Assembly: GCA_038210415.1 (NCBI GenBank)
Contig: JBBQWS010000003.1
Coordinates: forward strand, 59,577-123,576
DNA from: Actinomycetes bacterium
GTDB taxonomy: Bacteria; Actinomycetota; Actinomycetes; Prado026
DNA: 64,000 nt
Reading direction: 5' to 3'
In this document: one piece after another, positions 35,369-41,934 of the stretch
Layout of the letters: each line of letters opens with the position of its first letter
Numbering within the stretch: position 1 is the first letter of the stretch
Notes under the pieces: generated by a model
The model's input: only the letters and a program-made list of their open reading frames with translations
Told to the model about the DNA's origin: nothing
The model's database searches: none
Position numbers and translations under genes: made by a program

Positions 35369-36517
35369 TCAGAGCCCGAGGTCGCGGGCGATCAGCAGCC
35401 GCTGCACCTCAGATGTGCCCTCCCCGATCTCGAGGATCTTCGCGTCACGGTAGAACCGTCCGACGGGGTACTCGTTCATGAACCCGTAGCCGCCGTGGAC
35501 CTGGGCGGCGAACCGGGCGTTGTCCATCGCGGCCTCGGAGGAGTACAGCTTGGCGATCGACGCCTGACGCTTGAACGGCCGGCCGGCGAGCAGTCGGGCC
35601 GCCGCGTCGTAGTAGGCCAGCCGGGCCGTGTGCGCGCGCACCTCCATGTCGGCGACCAGGAACTGCACCGCCTGGTTCGCTCCGATCGGTCGGCCGAAGG
35701 CCTGGCGCTCGTTCGCGTACCGCACCGACTCGTCGACGCAGCCCTGCGCCAGCCCGACCGCCAGGGCCGCGATCGCGATCCGGCCCTCGTCGAGGATCTC
35801 CAGGAACTGTGCGTAGCCGCGACCCCGCTCCCCCACGAGGTTGCCCACGGGCACCCGGCAGTCGGTGAACGACAGTCCGTGCGTGTCGGACGAGCGCCAG
35901 CCGACCTTGGAGTAGGACGGCTCGACCGTGAACCCGGGGGTGCCGCTGGGCACGAGGATCGCGGAGATCTCCTTGCGCCCTTCGGCCTGCTCGCCGGTCA
36001 CCGCGGTGACGATGACGAACGACGTGATGTCGGTGCCCGAGTTCGTGATGAAGGCCTTGCTCCCGTTGATCACCCAGTCGTCGCCGTCCACGACCGCGGT
36101 CGTCCTGGTCGCGCCGGCGTCGGAGCCGCCGCCGGGCTCGGTCAGCCCGAAGGCTCCGAGGGCCTCGCCCGCGCAGAGGGCCGGCAACCAGCGCGCCTTC
36201 AGCTCGGGAGAGCCGAACCGGTACAACGGCATGGCGCCCAGCGACACCGCCGCCTCGAGGGTGATCGCGACCGACGAGTCGACCCGGGCGAGCTCCTCGA
36301 TGGCGAGGTGGAGCGCGAACGAGTCACCGCCCATGCCACCGACCGCCTCCGGGAACGGCAGGCCGAACAGTCCCATGGCTGCCATCCCGCGTACGATCTC
36401 GTACGGGAACTCGCCCTGCTCGTAGAGGTCGCCGATCTGCGGCGCGACGACTCGCGCGGCGAAGTCGCGGACCGAGTCGACCAGGGCGGCGTGCTCGTCT
36501 GACAGTGCGAAGTCCAC
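35369..36517 (-). CDS. Acyl-CoA dehydrogenase (isovaleryl/short-chain-like)
   Basis: FGLTEPGGGSDAG, NGSKAFITN, HGGYGFMNEYPV, IGEGTSEVQR. Confidence 0.92.
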   Translation of the reverse strand: MDFALSDEHAALVDSVRDFAARVVAPQIGDLYEQGEFPYEIVRGMAAMGLFGLPFPEAVGGMGGDSFALHLAIEELARVDSSVAITLEAAVSLGAMPLYRFGSPELKARWLPALCAGEALGAFGLTEPGGGSDAGATRTTAVVDGDDWVINGSKAFITNSGTDITSFVIVTAVTGEQAEGRKEISAILVPSGTPGFTVEPSYSKVGWRSSDTHGLSFTDCRVPVGNLVGERGRGYAQFLEILDEGRIAIAALAVGLAQGCVDESVRYANERQAFGRPIGANQAVQFLVADMEVRAHTARLAYYDAAARLLAGRPFKRQASIAKLYSSEAAMDNARFAAQVHGGYGFMNEYPVGRFYRDAKILEIGEGTSEVQRLLIARDLGL

Positions 36518-36582
36518 GCGGCCGACCTTCCGTAACATCCCGTGTTTTCGCCATCCTGACACGCTCGCCTTACCCTGGGCAC

Positions 36583-37122
36583 GTGACTTCCCCCTCTCAC
36601 CGCTCGGACCTCGGGCGTGTGCGCCGTCTGCGGGAAGCCCTGTGGGCGCAGTTCGGCCACCTGCTGGACGAGGTCGCGAAATTCGGAGTGGTGGGAGCCG
36701 TCGCGTACGTCGTCGACGTCGGCACGTTCAACCTGCTGCTGCACTGGGGCGGCACGAACGCCTGGCTGTACGACCGGCCGCTGCGGGCCAACGTCGTGTC
36801 GACGATCCTGGCCACGTTGGTGGCCTACGCCGGCAACCGGTTCTGGACGTTCCGCGATCGCGAGCGGGTCGGCTACGCGCGCGAGTACGCCACGTTCTTC
36901 CTGCTCAACGCCGTCGGGCTGGCGATCTCGCTCGGCTGCCTGGCGTTCTCGCACTACGTCCTCGGGCTCCGCTCCGGCATCGCGGACAACATCTCGGGCA
37001 AGGGCGTGGGCCTGGTCCTGGGCACGATGTTCCGGTTCTGGGCGTACCGCCGCTGGGTCTTCCCCGAGGTCGACGACGACGACGCGACGCCCGACCCGCG
37101 GCACGCGACCACCGTCACTTAG
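36583..37122 (+). CDS. GtrA-family protein (putative lipid-linked sugar flippase)
   Basis: KFGVVGAVAYVVD, NRFWTF, FRFWAYRRWVF; four TM segments; TACCCT 6 nt before GTG. Confidence 0.88.
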   Translation: MTSPSHRSDLGRVRRLREALWAQFGHLLDEVAKFGVVGAVAYVVDVGTFNLLLHWGGTNAWLYDRPLRANVVSTILATLVAYAGNRFWTFRDRERVGYAREYATFFLLNAVGLAISLGCLAFSHYVLGLRSGIADNISGKGVGLVLGTMFRFWAYRRWVFPEVDDDDATPDPRHATTVT

Positions 37123-37329
37123 GCCAACCGTGCGGGCAACCATTGCCCCCGCAGTCACGATGCGCTAGAACGGTGCCGACGACATCCACCTGGAAGCCGT
37201 CGACGTGGTGGAACGACCGGTCCCCGCACCCTGCACCCTCGCCAATTCTGGCGGGACGGTGGGCGTGCGTGGTCGGGGGGTTATTGGTGCGGTCCGGTCT
37301 TCCGGGGGGCCGACTCTCAGGAGACACCG

Positions 37330-38571
37330 ATGGCCAGAGGGACGTACGAACGCAATCCCAGTCACGACGACGACAAGGGCGCCGGCGAGCCGATCCCCGA
37401 GGAAGTCCTCGAGCGACAGGCTGCGGAGCGGCTGGAAGAGATCCACCAGTACCTCTCCGACCGGTACGCGCGCCGGGACGTCATCACGCGCACCCGCACA
37501 CCGGGCGGCATCGAGATCGACTGGGTTCCGGCCGAGTCCCAGTTCGGTGGACGCTGTCCCGCCGACCCGCCGGACGACGACAGCCCACCGAAGCTCGAGC
37601 ACGGGGAGCGCCGCGCCGAGCTGATGGAGTTCGAGCTCGAGAAGGAAGGCGCCCAGCGAGGCCCGCGTGGCACGGTGCCGCTGCTGCGCACGCCAGTCGA
37701 CCTGATCACGCCGACCGTCGGGCTGAACGACTGGCTGGCCAAGGGCCACCGGGCCAACCGGGTCGCTCCCGCTGGCAAGCTCGACGGCTACGAGGTCCCC
37801 GGGACCGAGGTGCACAAACACGTCTACGCCAGCCAGAACGTGACCTGCTACGGCACGGAAGGCGCCATCAACGCCTGGGACCCGTACACGGAGTGGTCCG
37901 ACGAGTTCTCCCTCGGCCAGCTCTGGCTCATCCGAGGCAGCGGTTCGGGCCAGCAAACCCTTGAGGTCGGTCACCAGGAGTACCGGGACCTGTACGGCGA
38001 CTGGGTTCCGCACCTGTTCCTGTACTACACGACCAATGGGTACACCTCACAGGGCAACAACCAGGGCGGCTACAACACCGACGTCAACGGGTGGGTGCAG
38101 TACGCGAGCACCATCCACCCAGGCTGCCTGTCTTCGCCGCTCAGCCAGTGGGGTGGCACGCAGTTCATCATGGTGTTGAAGGTGCAGCTGTGGCAGGGCA
38201 ACTGGTGGGTGAAGGTCAACGGGACCTGGATCGGCTACTACCCGGCGAGCCTGTACAACACCAACGGTCTGCGGGACCACGCCGACCGCCTCGATTGGGG
38301 CGGCGAGGTCGTCGACTCGTCCGACCACTCGGGGACCACCGACACCGACATGGGCAACGGGCACTGGCCGTACGAGGGCTGGCAGCACTGCGCCTACATG
38401 AACAACCTGCGATACCAGTCCACGACATGGGGCGGGATGACCGACTACAACGGAAGCGCCGCGTCGGAGTACCCCGCTTGTTACGGCATCGACTCGCACA
38501 TGCAGAGTGGGAGCAACTGGGGTTCGTACTTCTGGTGGGGCGGAAGCGGGAGGAACGCAAATTGCCCGTAG
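37330..38571 (+). CDS. Neprosin-family (DUF239) glutamic peptidase with N-terminal pro-domain
   Basis: AGGAG SD; pro-domain motifs IDWVP and PRGTVPLLR; catalytic domain YGTEGAINAWDP, EFSLGQLW, QTLEVGHQ, GNWW, IGYYPASLY, DWGGEV, DMGNGHWP. Confidence 0.85.
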   Translation: MARGTYERNPSHDDDKGAGEPIPEEVLERQAAERLEEIHQYLSDRYARRDVITRTRTPGGIEIDWVPAESQFGGRCPADPPDDDSPPKLEHGERRAELMEFELEKEGAQRGPRGTVPLLRTPVDLITPTVGLNDWLAKGHRANRVAPAGKLDGYEVPGTEVHKHVYASQNVTCYGTEGAINAWDPYTEWSDEFSLGQLWLIRGSGSGQQTLEVGHQEYRDLYGDWVPHLFLYYTTNGYTSQGNNQGGYNTDVNGWVQYASTIHPGCLSSPLSQWGGTQFIMVLKVQLWQGNWWVKVNGTWIGYYPASLYNTNGLRDHADRLDWGGEVVDSSDHSGTTDTDMGNGHWPYEGWQHCAYMNNLRYQSTTWGGMTDYNGSAASEYPACYGIDSHMQSGSNWGSYFWWGGSGRNANCP

Positions 38572-38828
38572 ACGAGGACGGGGTCATCCCGTCGCCGATC
38601 GACCCGGACTACGAGTGTGTCCCGGTCGCGGCGGCGGGAGATCCTCCGCCGAGCCCGCCGCCCGGTGGGCAGGACGAGCCACCGGGTCCACGCCTGTGCC
38701 CGCCGGGGTACGTTCCGCGCCGCCGCAGGCGGACGTACGACCTCGACGGCAAGGTGATCCGGACGCACCGCCCGGCTGGGCACAACCCGGACGCCGACCG
38801 TCAGCAGGCACCCGACGACGGGACGTAG
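38562..38828 (+). CDS. Small Pro-rich protein resembling a free-standing neprosin activation peptide
   Basis: TTG start 8 nt after GGAGG (38549-38553), overlapping the neprosin 3' end by 10 nt; 88 aa; motifs DYECVP and LCPPGYVPRRR. Confidence 0.6.
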   Translation: MPVDEDGVIPSPIDPDYECVPVAAAGDPPPSPPPGGQDEPPGPRLCPPGYVPRRRRRTYDLDGKVIRTHRPAGHNPDADRQQAPDDGT

Positions 38829-38903
38829 CGCGATGGGTCCTGGTGTGACTGCCTCGTAACCGCGGTCTTGTCGCATGGGGGGACCCTTGTGGCGGTATTG
38901 GGG

Positions 38904-40421
38904 CTAGACGGGGGTGATTCCGTGGCGGCGGCGGCTGAAGCTGCGGTCCTTGGTCGCAGCAGCGGCGAACCGCAGCACGAGCTCGCGGCGCAGGTCGGCC
39001 GGCGAGACCACCGCGTCGACGACCAGCTCGCTGGCCAGGCGCACGAGGTCGACGTCCTCGTCGTAGTCGGCCCGCCGCGCCGCGACGAAGGCGGCCCGCT
39101 CGTCGGGGTCGTCGATCGCAGCGATCTTGTTGGCGTAGACCGCGTTGACCGCGGCCTCGGCCCCCATCACCGCGATCGAGGCCGTGGGCAGCGCGAGGGT
39201 GGCGTCGGGCTCGAAGCCGGGTCCGGCCATCGCGTACAGCCCGGCGCCGTAGGCCTTGCGCACGACGACGCAGATCTTCGGCACGGTGGCCTCGGAGACC
39301 GCAGTGATCATCTTCGCACCGTGCCGGATGATGCCCTGCCGCTCGACCGCCGAGCCCACCATGAAGCCCGGCACGTCGGACAGGAACAGCAATGGCACGT
39401 TGAACGCGTCGCATGTCTGGACGAACCGGGTGGCCTTGTCGGCGCTGTCGACGAACAGCACGCCGCCCTTGAACAGCGAGTTGTTGGCGACGACGCCGAC
39501 GACCCGGCCGTCGAGGCGACCGAAGCCGACGGTGAGCTCGCGCGCCCACAAGGCCTGCACCTCGAGGAACGACCCGGCGTCGACCAGACCGGCGACGTAC
39601 TTGCGCATGTCGAACGCCTGCCGCGGGTTCGCCGGGATCATCGCGGCCAGGTCGAGGGACGGCGGCTCCACCGGCGCCACAGCCGGCGGCAGCCCCTGCC
39701 AGCTCGACGGGAGATATGAGAGGTAACGCCGGACGACGTCGAGCGCGGCGTCCTCGTCCGGGCACAGGAAGTGCCCCACCCCCGACTCGGCGCAGTGCAC
39801 TCGGGCACCACCCATCTCCTCCAGCGTCGTCTTCTCGCCGGTGACCATCTCGACCATGCGGTCGGAGCCGAGGTACATCGAGGCGTTGCCCTCGACCATG
39901 GCGACGACGTCGCAGAACGCCGGGATGTACGCACCTCCGGCAGCACTCGGCCCGAACAGCGCACACACCTGCGGGATCGAGCCCGACGCACGCACCTGGT
40001 TCCAGAAGATCTTGCCGGCTCCGCGCCGCCCCGGGAACAGGTCCACCTGGTCGGTGATCCGCGCGCCGGCCGAGTCGACGAGGTAGACCATCGGGACGCC
40101 GGTGGCGTACGCCCGCTCGATGATCCGGATAATCTTCTCGACGGTGCGTGCACCCCAGGAGCCGGCCTTGACGGTCGAGTCGTTGGCCATCAGGCAGACC
40201 GGCCGGCCGTCGACGGTGGCGAGACCGGTGACCACACCGTCGGCGGGGAGGTCGCCGGCCAGGACGTTCGCAAGCTCGCCGTCCTCGACGAAGGATCCCG
40301 GGTCGACCAGCCTGGCCACGCGTTCGCGGGCGAAGAGCTTCCCCTTCGCCGCGTTGGCGCCGTGGTAGCGCTCGGCCCCACCGCGGGCGACCTGGTCGCG
40401 CAGCTCGTCGTAGTCGGTCAC
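38904..40421 (-). CDS. Acyl-CoA carboxylase carboxyltransferase (beta) subunit, methylcrotonyl-CoA carboxylase-like
   Basis: GKLFARERV, VDSAGARI, SAAGGAY, DVPGFMVG, RKAYGAG, RHGITPV; TAGGCT 7 nt before GTG. Confidence 0.92.
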   Translation of the reverse strand: MTDYDELRDQVARGGAERYHGANAAKGKLFARERVARLVDPGSFVEDGELANVLAGDLPADGVVTGLATVDGRPVCLMANDSTVKAGSWGARTVEKIIRIIERAYATGVPMVYLVDSAGARITDQVDLFPGRRGAGKIFWNQVRASGSIPQVCALFGPSAAGGAYIPAFCDVVAMVEGNASMYLGSDRMVEMVTGEKTTLEEMGGARVHCAESGVGHFLCPDEDAALDVVRRYLSYLPSSWQGLPPAVAPVEPPSLDLAAMIPANPRQAFDMRKYVAGLVDAGSFLEVQALWARELTVGFGRLDGRVVGVVANNSLFKGGVLFVDSADKATRFVQTCDAFNVPLLFLSDVPGFMVGSAVERQGIIRHGAKMITAVSEATVPKICVVVRKAYGAGLYAMAGPGFEPDATLALPTASIAVMGAEAAVNAVYANKIAAIDDPDERAAFVAARRADYDEDVDLVRLASELVVDAVVSPADLRRELVLRFAAAATKDRSFSRRRHGITPV

Positions 40422-40431
40422 GGTCGCGAGC

Positions 40432-41934
40432 CTAACCGCCGAGGGCCACGCCCACCGCTGCCCGCAGTACCCCGGCCGCCTCGGGCGGCGGGGGGTCGCC
40501 GTCGCAGAGGAGCTCGACCAGCCAGTCGCCCGACCCCGCCGCGACGACCCGGGCCGTGCCGCGGACAGCCGCGAGCGGCACGTCGTCGTCGGCCAGCACG
40601 ACGGTGCCGCCCGCACGGGCCTGGCGGAGCCAGTCGTCGCCCGGACCGGCCGGAACCGACGCGGACACCAGGACGCCTTCGCGGGACGCCGAGTGGACCA
40701 CGGGGATGGCGGCACCGTCCCGCACCCGGCTCACCACCCAGCCGGACGCCTTGAGCACGCCGCCGAGGGCTGAGGCCGCCGCGGCCAACCGGTCGACCGG
40801 AGGTTTGCCGGTCTGCCCGGCCAGCGCCGTCAGCGCGACGGCGAGCAACCCCGGCTGGCCGTCGCGCCGGTTGAACGCCCGCCGGTCGAGGGAGGTGACA
40901 CCGGGCGTCGCGATCACCGGATGGTCGGCCGCCGTGCGCTTGGCGTCGTACTGAGCGCCGTCCGCCATCGCGAACAGTCTGGCCGCCGTGACGACCCCTG
41001 GGATCAGCTCGGTGGACGAGAGCCCGCAGGCGACGCTGACGCCGTACGGCGCCGACCGCGACCCCCGCAGGAAGGCCGACGCCAGCGCCTCGCCCACAGA
41101 CAGGCCGTATCCCGGGAGCACCGCGCAGAACTCGTCGCCGCCGAGCCGGGCCGCGACCGCCCCGGGCACCTTGCCGGTCGCAGCCGAGAGCGCGTTCGCC
41201 ACCGCGACGAGCGCCCGGTCGCCGGCCTCGTGCCCGAACTCGTCGTTGGCCTGCTTGAGCCGGTTCACGTCGGCCATGACGACCGTCACCGGGGCGCCGC
41301 CCAGCCGGTGGGCCTCGAGCGCCGCCGCCAGGCGTTCGTCCACGAGCCGCCGGTTGCCCAGCCCGGTCAGGGTGTCCTGGTACGCCATCCGCTGGACCCG
41401 GGCCAGGTGCTCGACCTGGGCCAGCCCGGCCGACACCATCCCCGCGAACGCCTGGGCGAACGCAAGGTCGTCGTCGTCGTACGGCTCCGACTCCGGACCC
41501 CTGGTCGCGAACAGCTCGCCCCAGATCCGGCCCTCGGCGAGCACGGGCGCCGCGAGCGCGGAGTACGCGCCGATCCGGTCCAGCAGCTGCCGCTCGGCCT
41601 GGTCGCGGTCGTCGGACTCGACGGTCATGGCCCATGGCCGGGCCTCGTCGATCATCAGCCCCAGCATCGGGTACGCGGAGATCTCGTAGGTCTCGTCCGT
41701 GGGGAAGCGCTGCTCGTCCGGCGCGAGGTGGCCGACGTTGACGATGACCCGGGCGGTGCCGTGCTCGCGCTCGATCCGGGCGAGCGAGACGGACCGCGCG
41801 TCGAACGCGAACCGGGCCTCTTCGCATGCGCGCTCCGCGAGGTCCTCGAGCGAGCGCGCGTCGGCCAAGGCCCGGGCCAGCCGGACGAGTCCGGCCAGTC
41901 GCTCGTCCGCCCCCGTCGTGGGTCTTCGCTCCAT
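40432..41934 (-). CDS. GAF-GGDEF diguanylate cyclase
   Basis: N-terminal GAF (EGRIWGELFA); DTLTGLGNRR, ADVNRLKQANDEFGHEAGD, RLGGDEF; no RxxD I-site. Confidence 0.9.
   Translation of the reverse strand: MERRPTTGADERLAGLVRLARALADARSLEDLAERACEEARFAFDARSVSLARIEREHGTARVIVNVGHLAPDEQRFPTDETYEISAYPMLGLMIDEARPWAMTVESDDRDQAERQLLDRIGAYSALAAPVLAEGRIWGELFATRGPESEPYDDDDLAFAQAFAGMVSAGLAQVEHLARVQRMAYQDTLTGLGNRRLVDERLAAALEAHRLGGAPVTVVMADVNRLKQANDEFGHEAGDRALVAVANALSAATGKVPGAVAARLGGDEFCAVLPGYGLSVGEALASAFLRGSRSAPYGVSVACGLSSTELIPGVVTAARLFAMADGAQYDAKRTAADHPVIATPGVTSLDRRAFNRRDGQPGLLAVALTALAGQTGKPPVDRLAAAASALGGVLKASGWVVSRVRDGAAIPVVHSASREGVLVSASVPAGPGDDWLRQARAGGTVVLADDDVPLAAVRGTARVVAAGSGDWLVELLCDGDPPPPEAAGVLRAAVGVALGG

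Follow-up and report, generated by a model that had tools for sequence, protein, structure and literature searches.

Organization of the neprosin locus

The analyzed stretch of DNA (hereafter the window) comprises 64,000 nucleotides (nt) of the forward strand of contig JBBQWS010000003.1 of an Actinomycetes bacterium (assembly GCA_038210415.1); all coordinates given below are window positions. In our analyses we focused on two genes of its plus strand: (i) a gene encoding a neprosin-family peptidase of 413 amino acids (aa), read from the first possible start after an in-frame stop (37330..38571), and (ii) a small partner gene with a TTG start (38562..38828), encoding a two-Cys, Pro/Arg-rich protein of 88 aa, which is probably a regulator of this protease family. 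The two genes occupy different frames and overlap by 10 nt (38562..38571, plus strand), a segment in which the neprosin gene stops and the small gene starts. A Shine-Dalgarno (SD)-like sequence, GGAGG (38549..38553, plus strand), is placed 8 nt before the TTG, within the codons of a conserved GGSGRN motif. The open reading frames (ORFs), the TTG start, the GGAGG and the overlap are all located where an earlier annotation of this DNA (the original prediction) had put them. The motifs which that annotation had quoted as running parallel in the two proteins are also present: the small protein contains DYECVP, DPPPSPP and LCPPGYVPRRR, and the peptidase contains IDWVP, DPP, SPP and GPRGTVPLLR. Proteins are designated below by P-numbers (P0001, the 88-aa small protein of the window; P0002, its 413-aa peptidase) and loci by L-numbers.

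Linkage and conservation of the small gene

A search of genomes (one genome per species) with the peptidase as the query yielded seven related loci (50–85% identity), including those of a Lacisediminihabitans metagenome-assembled genome (MAG), a Chloroflexia-labelled MAG, Mycolicibacterium stellerae, a Mycobacterium MAG and Streptomyces. In six of the seven, the peptidase stop is immediately followed by a homologous small ORF (tblastn E-values from 5e-15 to 8e-40). The reverse search, a metagenome scan with the small-protein profile, identified 33 loci, 28 of which contain a neprosin match on the same strand, ending within approximately 60 nt upstream, a count in which L025 is represented by a C-terminal neprosin fragment and L046 by a frame-shifted copy. 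Four of the remaining five loci carry neprosin remnants, and one is devoid of any. Because several loci are near-duplicates (L017-L019, L035/L036, L047/L048 and L024/L030), the number of independent loci is lower. The arrangement of the window, with a small ORF behind the neprosin gene and a conserved overlapping start, recurs in other bacteria.

The gene junction is conserved in detail. In the window and in L006, L007, L008, L009 and L010, the distance from a start codon (TTG, GTG or ATG) to the end of the neprosin stop is 9 nt, and in L011 the distance from a GTG is 13 nt. The NTG start takes its first base from the wobble position of the preceding codon and its TG from the Cys412 codon, which is nearly invariant. 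In L005, the locus without the small ORF, the start position is occupied by CTG and the sequence downstream is unrelated. The SD position in related loci carries GGGAGG, GGGAAG or GGCAAG. A second possible start, a GTG 36 nt ahead of the stop end, is available in some loci; in L006 and L010, in-frame stops separate it from the small ORF, so only the 9-nt start is universal. The 10-nt overlap is consistent with translational coupling of the small gene to the neprosin gene. Two other explanations of the junction were considered and rejected: (i) a programmed frameshift joining both ORFs, since there is no conserved slippery sequence and the stops of L006 and L010 lie just upstream in the small-gene frame, and (ii) true C-terminal fusions, as the two candidates (P0020 and P0027) both contain alternate-frame translation and were therefore read as frame-shifted or chimeric gene calls.

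The protein database contains 17 called homologues of the small protein (83–106 aa), four of them named "hypothetical protein" and the rest unnamed. Among 1.84 billion representatives, an exhaustive search with the profile returned 40 matches at E ≤ 1e-3, nearly all of 44–135 aa; the two long matches (P0052 and P0058) proved to be unrelated repeat proteins. The homologues originate from Microbacteriaceae-like bacteria, Mycobacterium, Streptomyces and contigs of low guanine-cytosine (GC) content, and share 45–85% identity. Both Cys motifs are present in 31 of 32 small-protein representatives. In an alignment of 52 sequences, six residues are invariant (C19, P33, C46, G49, G63 and K64) and ten are conserved in at least 90% of the sequences (D14, E18, V20, P32, P47, Y50, V51, P52, R53 and R56). 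Residues of this set lie in the following plus-strand elements: E18-C19-V20, located in the first strand of the predicted structure (38613..38621), L45-C46-P-P-G-Y-V-P-R-R-R, which resembles a strand of the neprosin activation peptide (AP) (38694..38726), and G63-K64 (38748..38753). NCBIfam gave no match for the peptidase or the small protein, and an ESM Atlas look-up of P0001 gave no usable match.

Among seven copies of the small ORF, the ratio of nonsynonymous to synonymous substitution rates (dN/dS) was 0.11–0.56 in the 20 computable of 21 pairs (one pair was saturated), with synonymous differences of 0.47–0.79 per site, which is near saturation. The GC content of the ORF at its three codon positions is 0.80, 0.57 and 0.85. 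Judged by this comparative sequence evidence, the small ORF is a real, separately encoded gene under purifying selection. This agrees with the proposal that it is a separate protein-coding gene coupled to the neprosin gene, its position and sequence being conserved across genera and its dN/dS lying below 1. That it is a chance ORF of GC-rich DNA, and not a gene, can hardly be entertained: long spurious ORFs are indeed common here, the small-gene frame is open back to 38091, and chimeric calls (P0020 and P0027) do occur, but the idea is contradicted by the conservation, the dN/dS values, the conserved start and the fusions described below. The open stretch back to 38091 amounts to 157 further codons upstream, inside the peptidase gene; translation of this alternate peptidase frame gave rise to the chimeric database proteins, a gene-caller pitfall in GC-rich DNA.

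A Kyte-Doolittle scan revealed no hydrophobic N-terminal stretch in any of 23 small proteins. The divergent small protein P0033, apparently of a low-GC organism, has a hydrophobic N-terminus ending with LLSC, of the lipoprotein type and reaching 3.0 on the Kyte-Doolittle scale, which suggests that some family members may act outside the cytoplasm. Two further variants contain repeats: in L008 (5260-5436), approximately 10 tandem hexapeptides (GRDPSA/GSDPSA) separate the small-ORF start from a conserved VIPS block, and in P0047 a GAGAEF repeat is placed inside the linker between the two Cys motifs. Variable parts of the small protein tolerate insertions.

The peptidase and its pro-domain

The peptidase matches Pfam family PF03080 (Neprosin) over residues 191–405 (E = 2.5e-43; 148.4 bits versus a cut-off of 22), and its sequence matches in the PDB include plant neprosin entries (7zu8, 7zvb and 9qr8; E of about 1e-32). 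The AlphaFold2 (AF2) model of the protein has a predicted local distance difference test (pLDDT) score of 78.3 and a predicted template modelling (pTM) score of 0.85, and its top match in Foldseek is the neprosin zymogen 7zva_A (E = 5.2e-23; 375 columns; target TM score of 0.78). A zymogen architecture, in which an N-terminal pro-domain is packed on a beta-sandwich catalytic domain, is predicted by this model.

The catalytic glutamates of plant neprosin are E188 and E297, according to the structural report (PMC9343461). Their counterparts in P0002 are E212 of the QTLEVGHQ motif (37963..37965, aligned with TIEAGWQ) and E326 of the WGGEVVD motif (38305..38307, aligned with WGGEIYD), both on the plus strand. 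In a subfamily set of 45 sequences (P0002 and 44 others picked from 120 listed homologues), E212 is invariant and E326 is conserved in at least 90%. P0002 is thus a predicted glutamic peptidase zymogen of the neprosin family (MEROPS G3-type), referred to here as the neprosin-1 type.

None of the 45 peptidases contains a hydrophobic N-terminal stretch (the maximum 12-residue Kyte-Doolittle mean is 1.39), and P0002 has no signal peptide. Cys384 (38479-38481) and Cys412 (38563-38565) are each conserved in at least 90% of the set and are probably the equivalents of the C358-C379 disulfide of neprosin; the signal-less peptidase nonetheless keeps cysteines that probably match a disulfide of a secreted plant protein.

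The pro-domain encoded in the peptidase gene itself (the cis pro-domain) covers approximately residues 25–140 (37402..37749, plus strand). It was modelled with pLDDT values of 78–94 over blocks 31–130, and is composed of a helix (residues 25–47), four strands (53–56, 62–67, 96–98 and 115–120) and a second helix (132–136). The pro-domain disulfide of neprosin, taken as established in the original prediction, is documented as C52-C98 (PMC9343461). As described there, C98 precedes the last pro-domain strand, and the linker that follows puts K118 into the S1 site, against E188 (PMC9343461). The canonical AP motifs around these cysteines read VVDCV and ECPKGSIPIRR in plant neprosin, and DIVDCVP and LCPRGTVPMLR in the bacterial neprosin of L003.

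In place of the canonical disulfide cysteines, the cis pro-domain of P0002 carries W65 (37522-37524) and G111 (37660-37662), and the following L.D.L.K motif contains K138 (37741-37743); the three residues are encoded on the plus strand and are invariant in all 45 sequences. The original prediction had pointed out that both cysteines are absent from this domain and present in the small protein, which we confirmed. The absence of pro-domain cysteines is common among the bacterial relatives whose sequences were compared: the two positions are occupied by Cys and Ala in L016, Cys and Tyr in P0021, and Tyr and Tyr in P0022, and only L003 has both Cys. No match to PF14365 (Neprosin_AP) at E ≤ 10 was obtained for the peptidase, and the domain is absent from all of the 120 homologues listed. 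The further claim that the cis pro-domain is deficient did not hold, given the invariance of W65 and G111 and the superposition of the modelled peptidase on the neprosin zymogen over 375 columns.

Relation of the small protein to the neprosin activation peptide

The profile of the small-protein family was compared with two groups of pro-regions. Alignment with the APs of canonical-type bacterial neprosins (P0021, P0022, L003 and L016) by hhalign gave a score of 20.55 (E = 0.011), with a probability of only 3.7% and a length of 13 columns; this score was reached by none of 100 column shuffles, whichever of two settings was used. The centre of the match pairs rLCPeGYVPRRRR of the small proteins with P.GtvPv.R of the APs, and tblastn of P0001 also picks the AP of L003. 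Comparison with the 45 window-type pro-regions produced a colinear alignment in greedy mode only (score 14.18, probability 0.4%), and this score, reached by 12 of 200 column shuffles, is not significant. BLASTP of P0001 against P0002 gave only E = 1.9. The parallel to AP motifs put forward in the original prediction therefore stands for the CPxGxVPxxR strand motif and is not supported for the colinear match to the peptidase's own pro-region. Profile matches beyond this motif were not obtained: (i) PF14365 matched none of 23 members of the small-protein family at E ≤ 10, so the expected Neprosin_AP similarity of the small ORF was not recovered, (ii) the family profile found no neprosin among PDB sequences, and (iii) no AP-bearing protein was present among the 40 matches of the exhaustive profile search. 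In favour of a partial relationship, MAFFT twice drew canonical APs to the module in mixed alignments of small proteins and full neprosins (A3 and A5); these alignments were rejected for structure prediction.

The AF2 model of the small protein, built on the 52-sequence alignment (pLDDT of 74.7), contains exactly two strands (residues 17–21 and 50–54). The first strand includes C19 and the second begins four residues after C46; in the peptidase model, strand 62–67 contains W65 and strand 115–120 begins four residues after G111. The strands of the small protein thus sit relative to its cysteines as the peptidase strands do relative to W65 and G111. The distance from C46 to K64 is 18 residues, compared with 20 residues from C98 to K118 of neprosin, which makes K64 a candidate active-site plug lysine. 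Fold searches with the 88-aa model, which is too small for such searches, gave no meaningful match, with a best E of 8.5 (Foldseek versus the PDB) and a best Z of 2.3 (VIA-align). Taken at the level of sequence and model, the module looks like a minimal two-strand pro-segment core, a resemblance and not an established membership of the AP family.

The strict version of the original prediction, which holds the small protein to be a true and full Neprosin_AP homologue replacing a defective cis pro-domain, is improbable in our assessment. It would account for the colinear order of motifs reproduced by greedy hhalign and for the cysteines found in the small protein and at neither position of the cis pro-domain. 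However, that alignment has a probability of 0.4% and its score was equalled by 12 of 200 shuffles, PF14365 does not match, and only 27 residues separate the two cysteines of the small protein versus 46 between C52 and C98 of neprosin. Moreover, the cis pro-domain shows good conservation and a zymogen-like model, and the module coexists with a complete AP in two fusion proteins (P0021 and P0022) described in the next section.

Fusion and fission with a second neprosin

A profile search among longer proteins gave three matches: P0020, which is the chimeric call mentioned above, P0021 (497 aa) and P0022 (516 aa). In the latter two, the small-protein module (residues 1 to approximately 80) is followed by a linker, a PF14365 AP and a PF03080 domain. 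The PF14365 matches lie outside the N-terminal module (residues 149–239, E = 1.8e-6 in P0021; residues 159–258, E = 1.6e-3 in P0022), and from approximately residue 100 both proteins align with the canonical-type bacterial neprosins L003 and L016, neither of which has a small partner. As the module precedes a complete AP in P0021 and P0022, it is an extra module and not an AP replacement.

The genomic context of the fusions links them to the window cassette. In L028, the P0021 gene is placed immediately behind a window-type neprosin gene, with the same overlapping junction. In L032, a window-type neprosin gene is followed by a separate 88-aa small gene and then by a gene for a 421-aa P0022-type neprosin, which starts at the end of the P0022 linker. 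With the second enzyme called neprosin-2, four states were seen: (i) neprosin-1 followed by a fused module~neprosin-2, (ii) neprosin-1, module and neprosin-2 as three genes, (iii) neprosin-1 and module, as in the window and the majority of loci, and (iv) neprosin-1 alone (L005). Neprosin-2 was present only in L028 and L032 of the 33 metagenome loci, and in none of the six genome loci with the small ORF. Most likely, the window cassette descends from the state with the fused module~neprosin-2, neprosin-2 having been lost and the module kept under selection. The polarity may also have been the opposite, with a free small gene fused to neprosin-2 later. In either case, the series of loci (fused, split, second gene lost, module lost) provides a clean natural example of a domain turned into a free-standing gene.

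Such a history raises the question of whether the ORF is just an open 5' remnant, translated or not, of a tandem neprosin-2 gene that was lost, and is functionless with neprosin-1. L028 (fused), L032 (split) and the window (neprosin-2 absent) do show a module that once headed a second gene, and module loss or decay is visible in L005, L047/L048 and L049: L047 and L048 have only the last 19 peptidase codons and a truncated small ORF, and L049 has a frame-shifted small-ORF remnant and no neprosin. We nevertheless consider this explanation very improbable, since the module-only state is the commonest, the gene spans a wide taxonomic range at 45–85% identity with dN/dS of 0.11–0.56, six residues are invariant in 52 sequences and the start codon is conserved.

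Other rearrangements were also observed. In L025 (1934-4648), a truncated neprosin C-terminus (a 141-aa ORF) is followed by a small gene and, approximately 800 nt further on, by a complete window-type neprosin, behind which no small gene was found within the approximately 400 nt of available downstream sequence; judged by its gene order, this is another rearranged tandem arrangement. L024 and L030, whose contigs are 98–99% identical to that of the sister locus L026, represent a natural peptidase deletion variant, in which a 1.1-kb internal part of the peptidase gene (1203-2330 of L026) is missing and the small gene is intact.

Proposed role of the small protein

Our preferred interpretation, which we hold with moderate confidence, is that the small protein is a detached mini pro-segment regulating the neprosin in trans, with the role of an inhibitor, or second lock, as the most likely form predicted from the sequences and models. 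A trans-acting latency partner is suggested by the conserved coupled gene, its occasional fusion to an enzyme, the pro-segment-like strand motif, and the invariant Cys pair and Gly-Lys. Under this interpretation, the small protein would bind neprosin in trans and govern its latency, its second strand would dock like the last strand of the pro-domain, and K64 would reach the catalytic glutamates. An inhibitory lock is favoured because of the analogy with the neprosin linker and its K118 plug, and with operon-encoded cognate inhibitors such as the staphostatins. Thus, the trans pro-peptide idea of the original prediction is retained for the coupled separate gene, the fusions and the strand motif, whereas full AP homology and a defective cis pro-domain are dropped from it. 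A folding helper, or an activator displacing the cis pro-domain, is less likely, and present data do not separate these two roles from that of a lock.

Several observations weigh against the proposed detached mini pro-segment. The absence of PF14365, PDB neprosin and AP-bearing matches, the low hhalign probability over 13 columns and the non-significant score with window-type pro-regions, all given above, limit the AP resemblance. As the cis pro-domain is intact, confidently modelled and provided with the invariant K138, a second lock is not obviously needed. As the fused module belongs to neprosin-2, the lost paralogue, and not neprosin-1, may have been its original cognate enzyme. Neither gene is strictly tied to the other: L024 and L030 retain the small gene with the peptidase deleted, and L005 has the peptidase gene only. 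When the L005 genome was searched with the profile, four weak matches were obtained and no other copy of the small gene was established; two matches (E = 0.0012 and 0.021) lie inside unrelated ORFs, and the other two, which were left unread, reached only E = 0.68 and 0.75. Neither protein has a signal peptide, and neprosin is an acid-activated enzyme (PMC9343461). Prediction of the complex (neprosin alignment A2 with small-protein alignment A1) returned "no answer," with a score of 0.01 versus a mark of 0.32 in a run made without controls, and counts neither for nor against the interpretation; both binding in trans and inhibition are inferred from sequences and models. On the supporting side, the window's genome contains a single neprosin gene, and neprosin-1 is therefore the only possible neprosin partner there.

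The main rival is a role of the small protein as a substrate or precursor, in which the prolyl (and post-Cys) endopeptidase would act on the Pro-rich linker, the E[RH]NP tail or the cysteines of the small protein and release a peptide with its own function. The small protein is Pro-rich, with P33 invariant and P32 conserved in at least 90% between two conserved blocks, and neprosin cleaves after Pro, Ala and reduced Cys, as stated in the specificity study (PMC11618732). The tail of the small protein contains H-N-P (38784..38792, plus strand), of the E[RH]NP type, and a similar motif, E-R-N-P, is present at peptidase residues 7–10 (37348..37359, plus strand). Of the 23 small proteins, 14 carry the pattern [ED][RHQ]NP near the C-terminus (last 35 residues), and 24 of the 45 subfamily peptidases carry it near the N-terminus (first 35 residues), as would be expected of a common processing site, and the fused forms could be self-processing. 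On the other hand, there are no modifying enzymes, transporters or other conserved neighbours beside the pair, the conservation over two strand motifs and Gly-Lys is more that of a binding interface than of a leader-and-core peptide, and AF2 gives a moderately confident small fold. We therefore regard a substrate or precursor role as unlikely. The peptidase starts with ERNP..D.D and the small protein ends with HNPDAD, and some relatives carry ERNPDADR at both places. The common E-R-N-P motif may be a processing site of both proteins, or the trace of an old module/linker junction.

A more specific version of the lock is a redox switch, in which latency of these signal-less bacterial neprosins, which may be intracellular, would be set by a detachable, redox-sensitive mini pro-segment and not by acid pH. 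With C19-C46 oxidized, the small protein would fold into a plug, dock in the manner of the last pro-domain strand and block the glutamates via K64; once reduced, it would be cleaved by the enzyme itself, so that the lock is destroyed and the protease released. Reduced cysteines of the small protein are proposed as the cleavage sites because neprosin cuts after reduced, and not disulfide-bonded, Cys, according to the same study (PMC11618732). We consider this scheme a long shot. If true, it would describe a protease-inhibitor pair acting as a thiol-redox switch and born by the fission of a tandem paralogue.

Distribution and gene neighbourhood

The pair is preceded by a GtrA-like gene (36505-37122) and followed by a convergent carboxyl-transferase gene on the minus strand (38904-40715). 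A scan of 37000-39000 found no promoter or terminator. Two genes downstream of the pair, a 500-aa ORF on the minus strand (40432-41934) with a GGDEF motif (RLGGDEFCAVL) encodes a probable diguanylate cyclase; this ORF is not kept beside the cassette in other loci. Among the Pfam-annotated neighbours of the window and the seven genome loci, there is no common flanking gene, and as the flanks vary between loci, the neprosin gene and the small gene constitute a self-contained cassette.

The peptidase is rare, with 3 carriers among 61 relatives (0 among the 11 of the same family) and 3 among 401 genomes sampled over the phylum, the window's own genome being one of the three in each case. As L024, L026 and L030 have a GC content of 40%, the cassette is not confined to high-GC actinobacteria. 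Within the genomes and metagenomes searched, it is patchily distributed in Actinomycetota and a few other lineages.

Comparison with known systems

Bacterial neprosin-family peptidases have been annotated by name only. The literature on them yielded no functional study and no partner protein, and that on neprosin yielded no bacterial neprosin partner and no two-gene system, subscription journals lying outside the scope of this search; within the same scope, the view that a two-gene neprosin system is undescribed was sustained. An in-silico neprosin preprint notes no more than a handful of bacterial entries (10.1101/2022.02.22.481544). A conserved, coupled partner that also occurs fused to an enzyme is a first concrete handle on the control of these glutamic peptidases outside the acid fluid of pitcher plants. 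Should the partner prove to be an inhibitor or chaperone, MEROPS G3 enzymes would have their first protein regulator, and such a protein could help to produce or tame prolyl endopeptidases of the neprosin type, which are being developed as glutenases and proteomics reagents.

The closest comparison for the enzyme is the plant neprosin zymogen of Nepenthes (MEROPS G3; 7ZU8/7ZVA), described in its structural report (PMC9343461), with which P0002 shares the PF03080 domain and both catalytic Glu. An N-terminal all-beta pro-domain, with a GPxGTVP strand and a linker behind it, is also common to both, and the predicted fold superposes on the zymogen. Unlike plant neprosin, the window peptidase has no signal peptide, no pro-domain disulfide and no PF14365 match, and has an extra N-terminal helix. 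It also differs in the separately encoded Cys-pair module, and activation by acid in a secreted fluid is unlikely to apply to it.

Free pro-segment-related inhibitors of mature proteases are known from Spi of Streptococcus pyogenes, encoded downstream of speB, and from MEROPS families I9 and I29. Spi is encoded beside its protease and the others apart from theirs, and all are clear homologues of a whole pro-peptide, acting on cysteine or serine peptidases. In contrast to these, the similarity of the window protein is limited to one strand motif, its enzyme is a glutamic peptidase, and the module also occurs fused before a complete pro-domain. In the staphostatin-staphopain operons of Staphylococcus (MEROPS I57/C47), a small inhibitor gene is located beside the protease gene. 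Like a staphostatin, the window product is a small signal-less protein encoded beside its presumed cognate protease. However, staphostatins are beta-barrels unrelated to the protease pro-peptide, and staphopain is a secreted cysteine peptidase; the window partner is pro-segment-like, and its inhibitory role is a prediction. Staphostatin B binds in the protease cleft in the substrate direction (PMC7863939).

A similar gene arrangement is that of the potempins and KLIKK peptidases of Tannerella forsythia, where a small ORF adjoins the peptidase gene and encodes a specific inhibitor of the neighbour (PMC9890683). The potempins differ from the window protein in being outer-membrane lipoproteins encoded upstream, unrelated in sequence and with no G3 target among the peptidases covered (PMC9890683). 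A protease with a cognate small partner is thus a known kind of system; the new element here is the pairing of a G3 glutamic peptidase and a predicted, detached mini pro-segment, the latter alternatively fused to a tandem paralogue.

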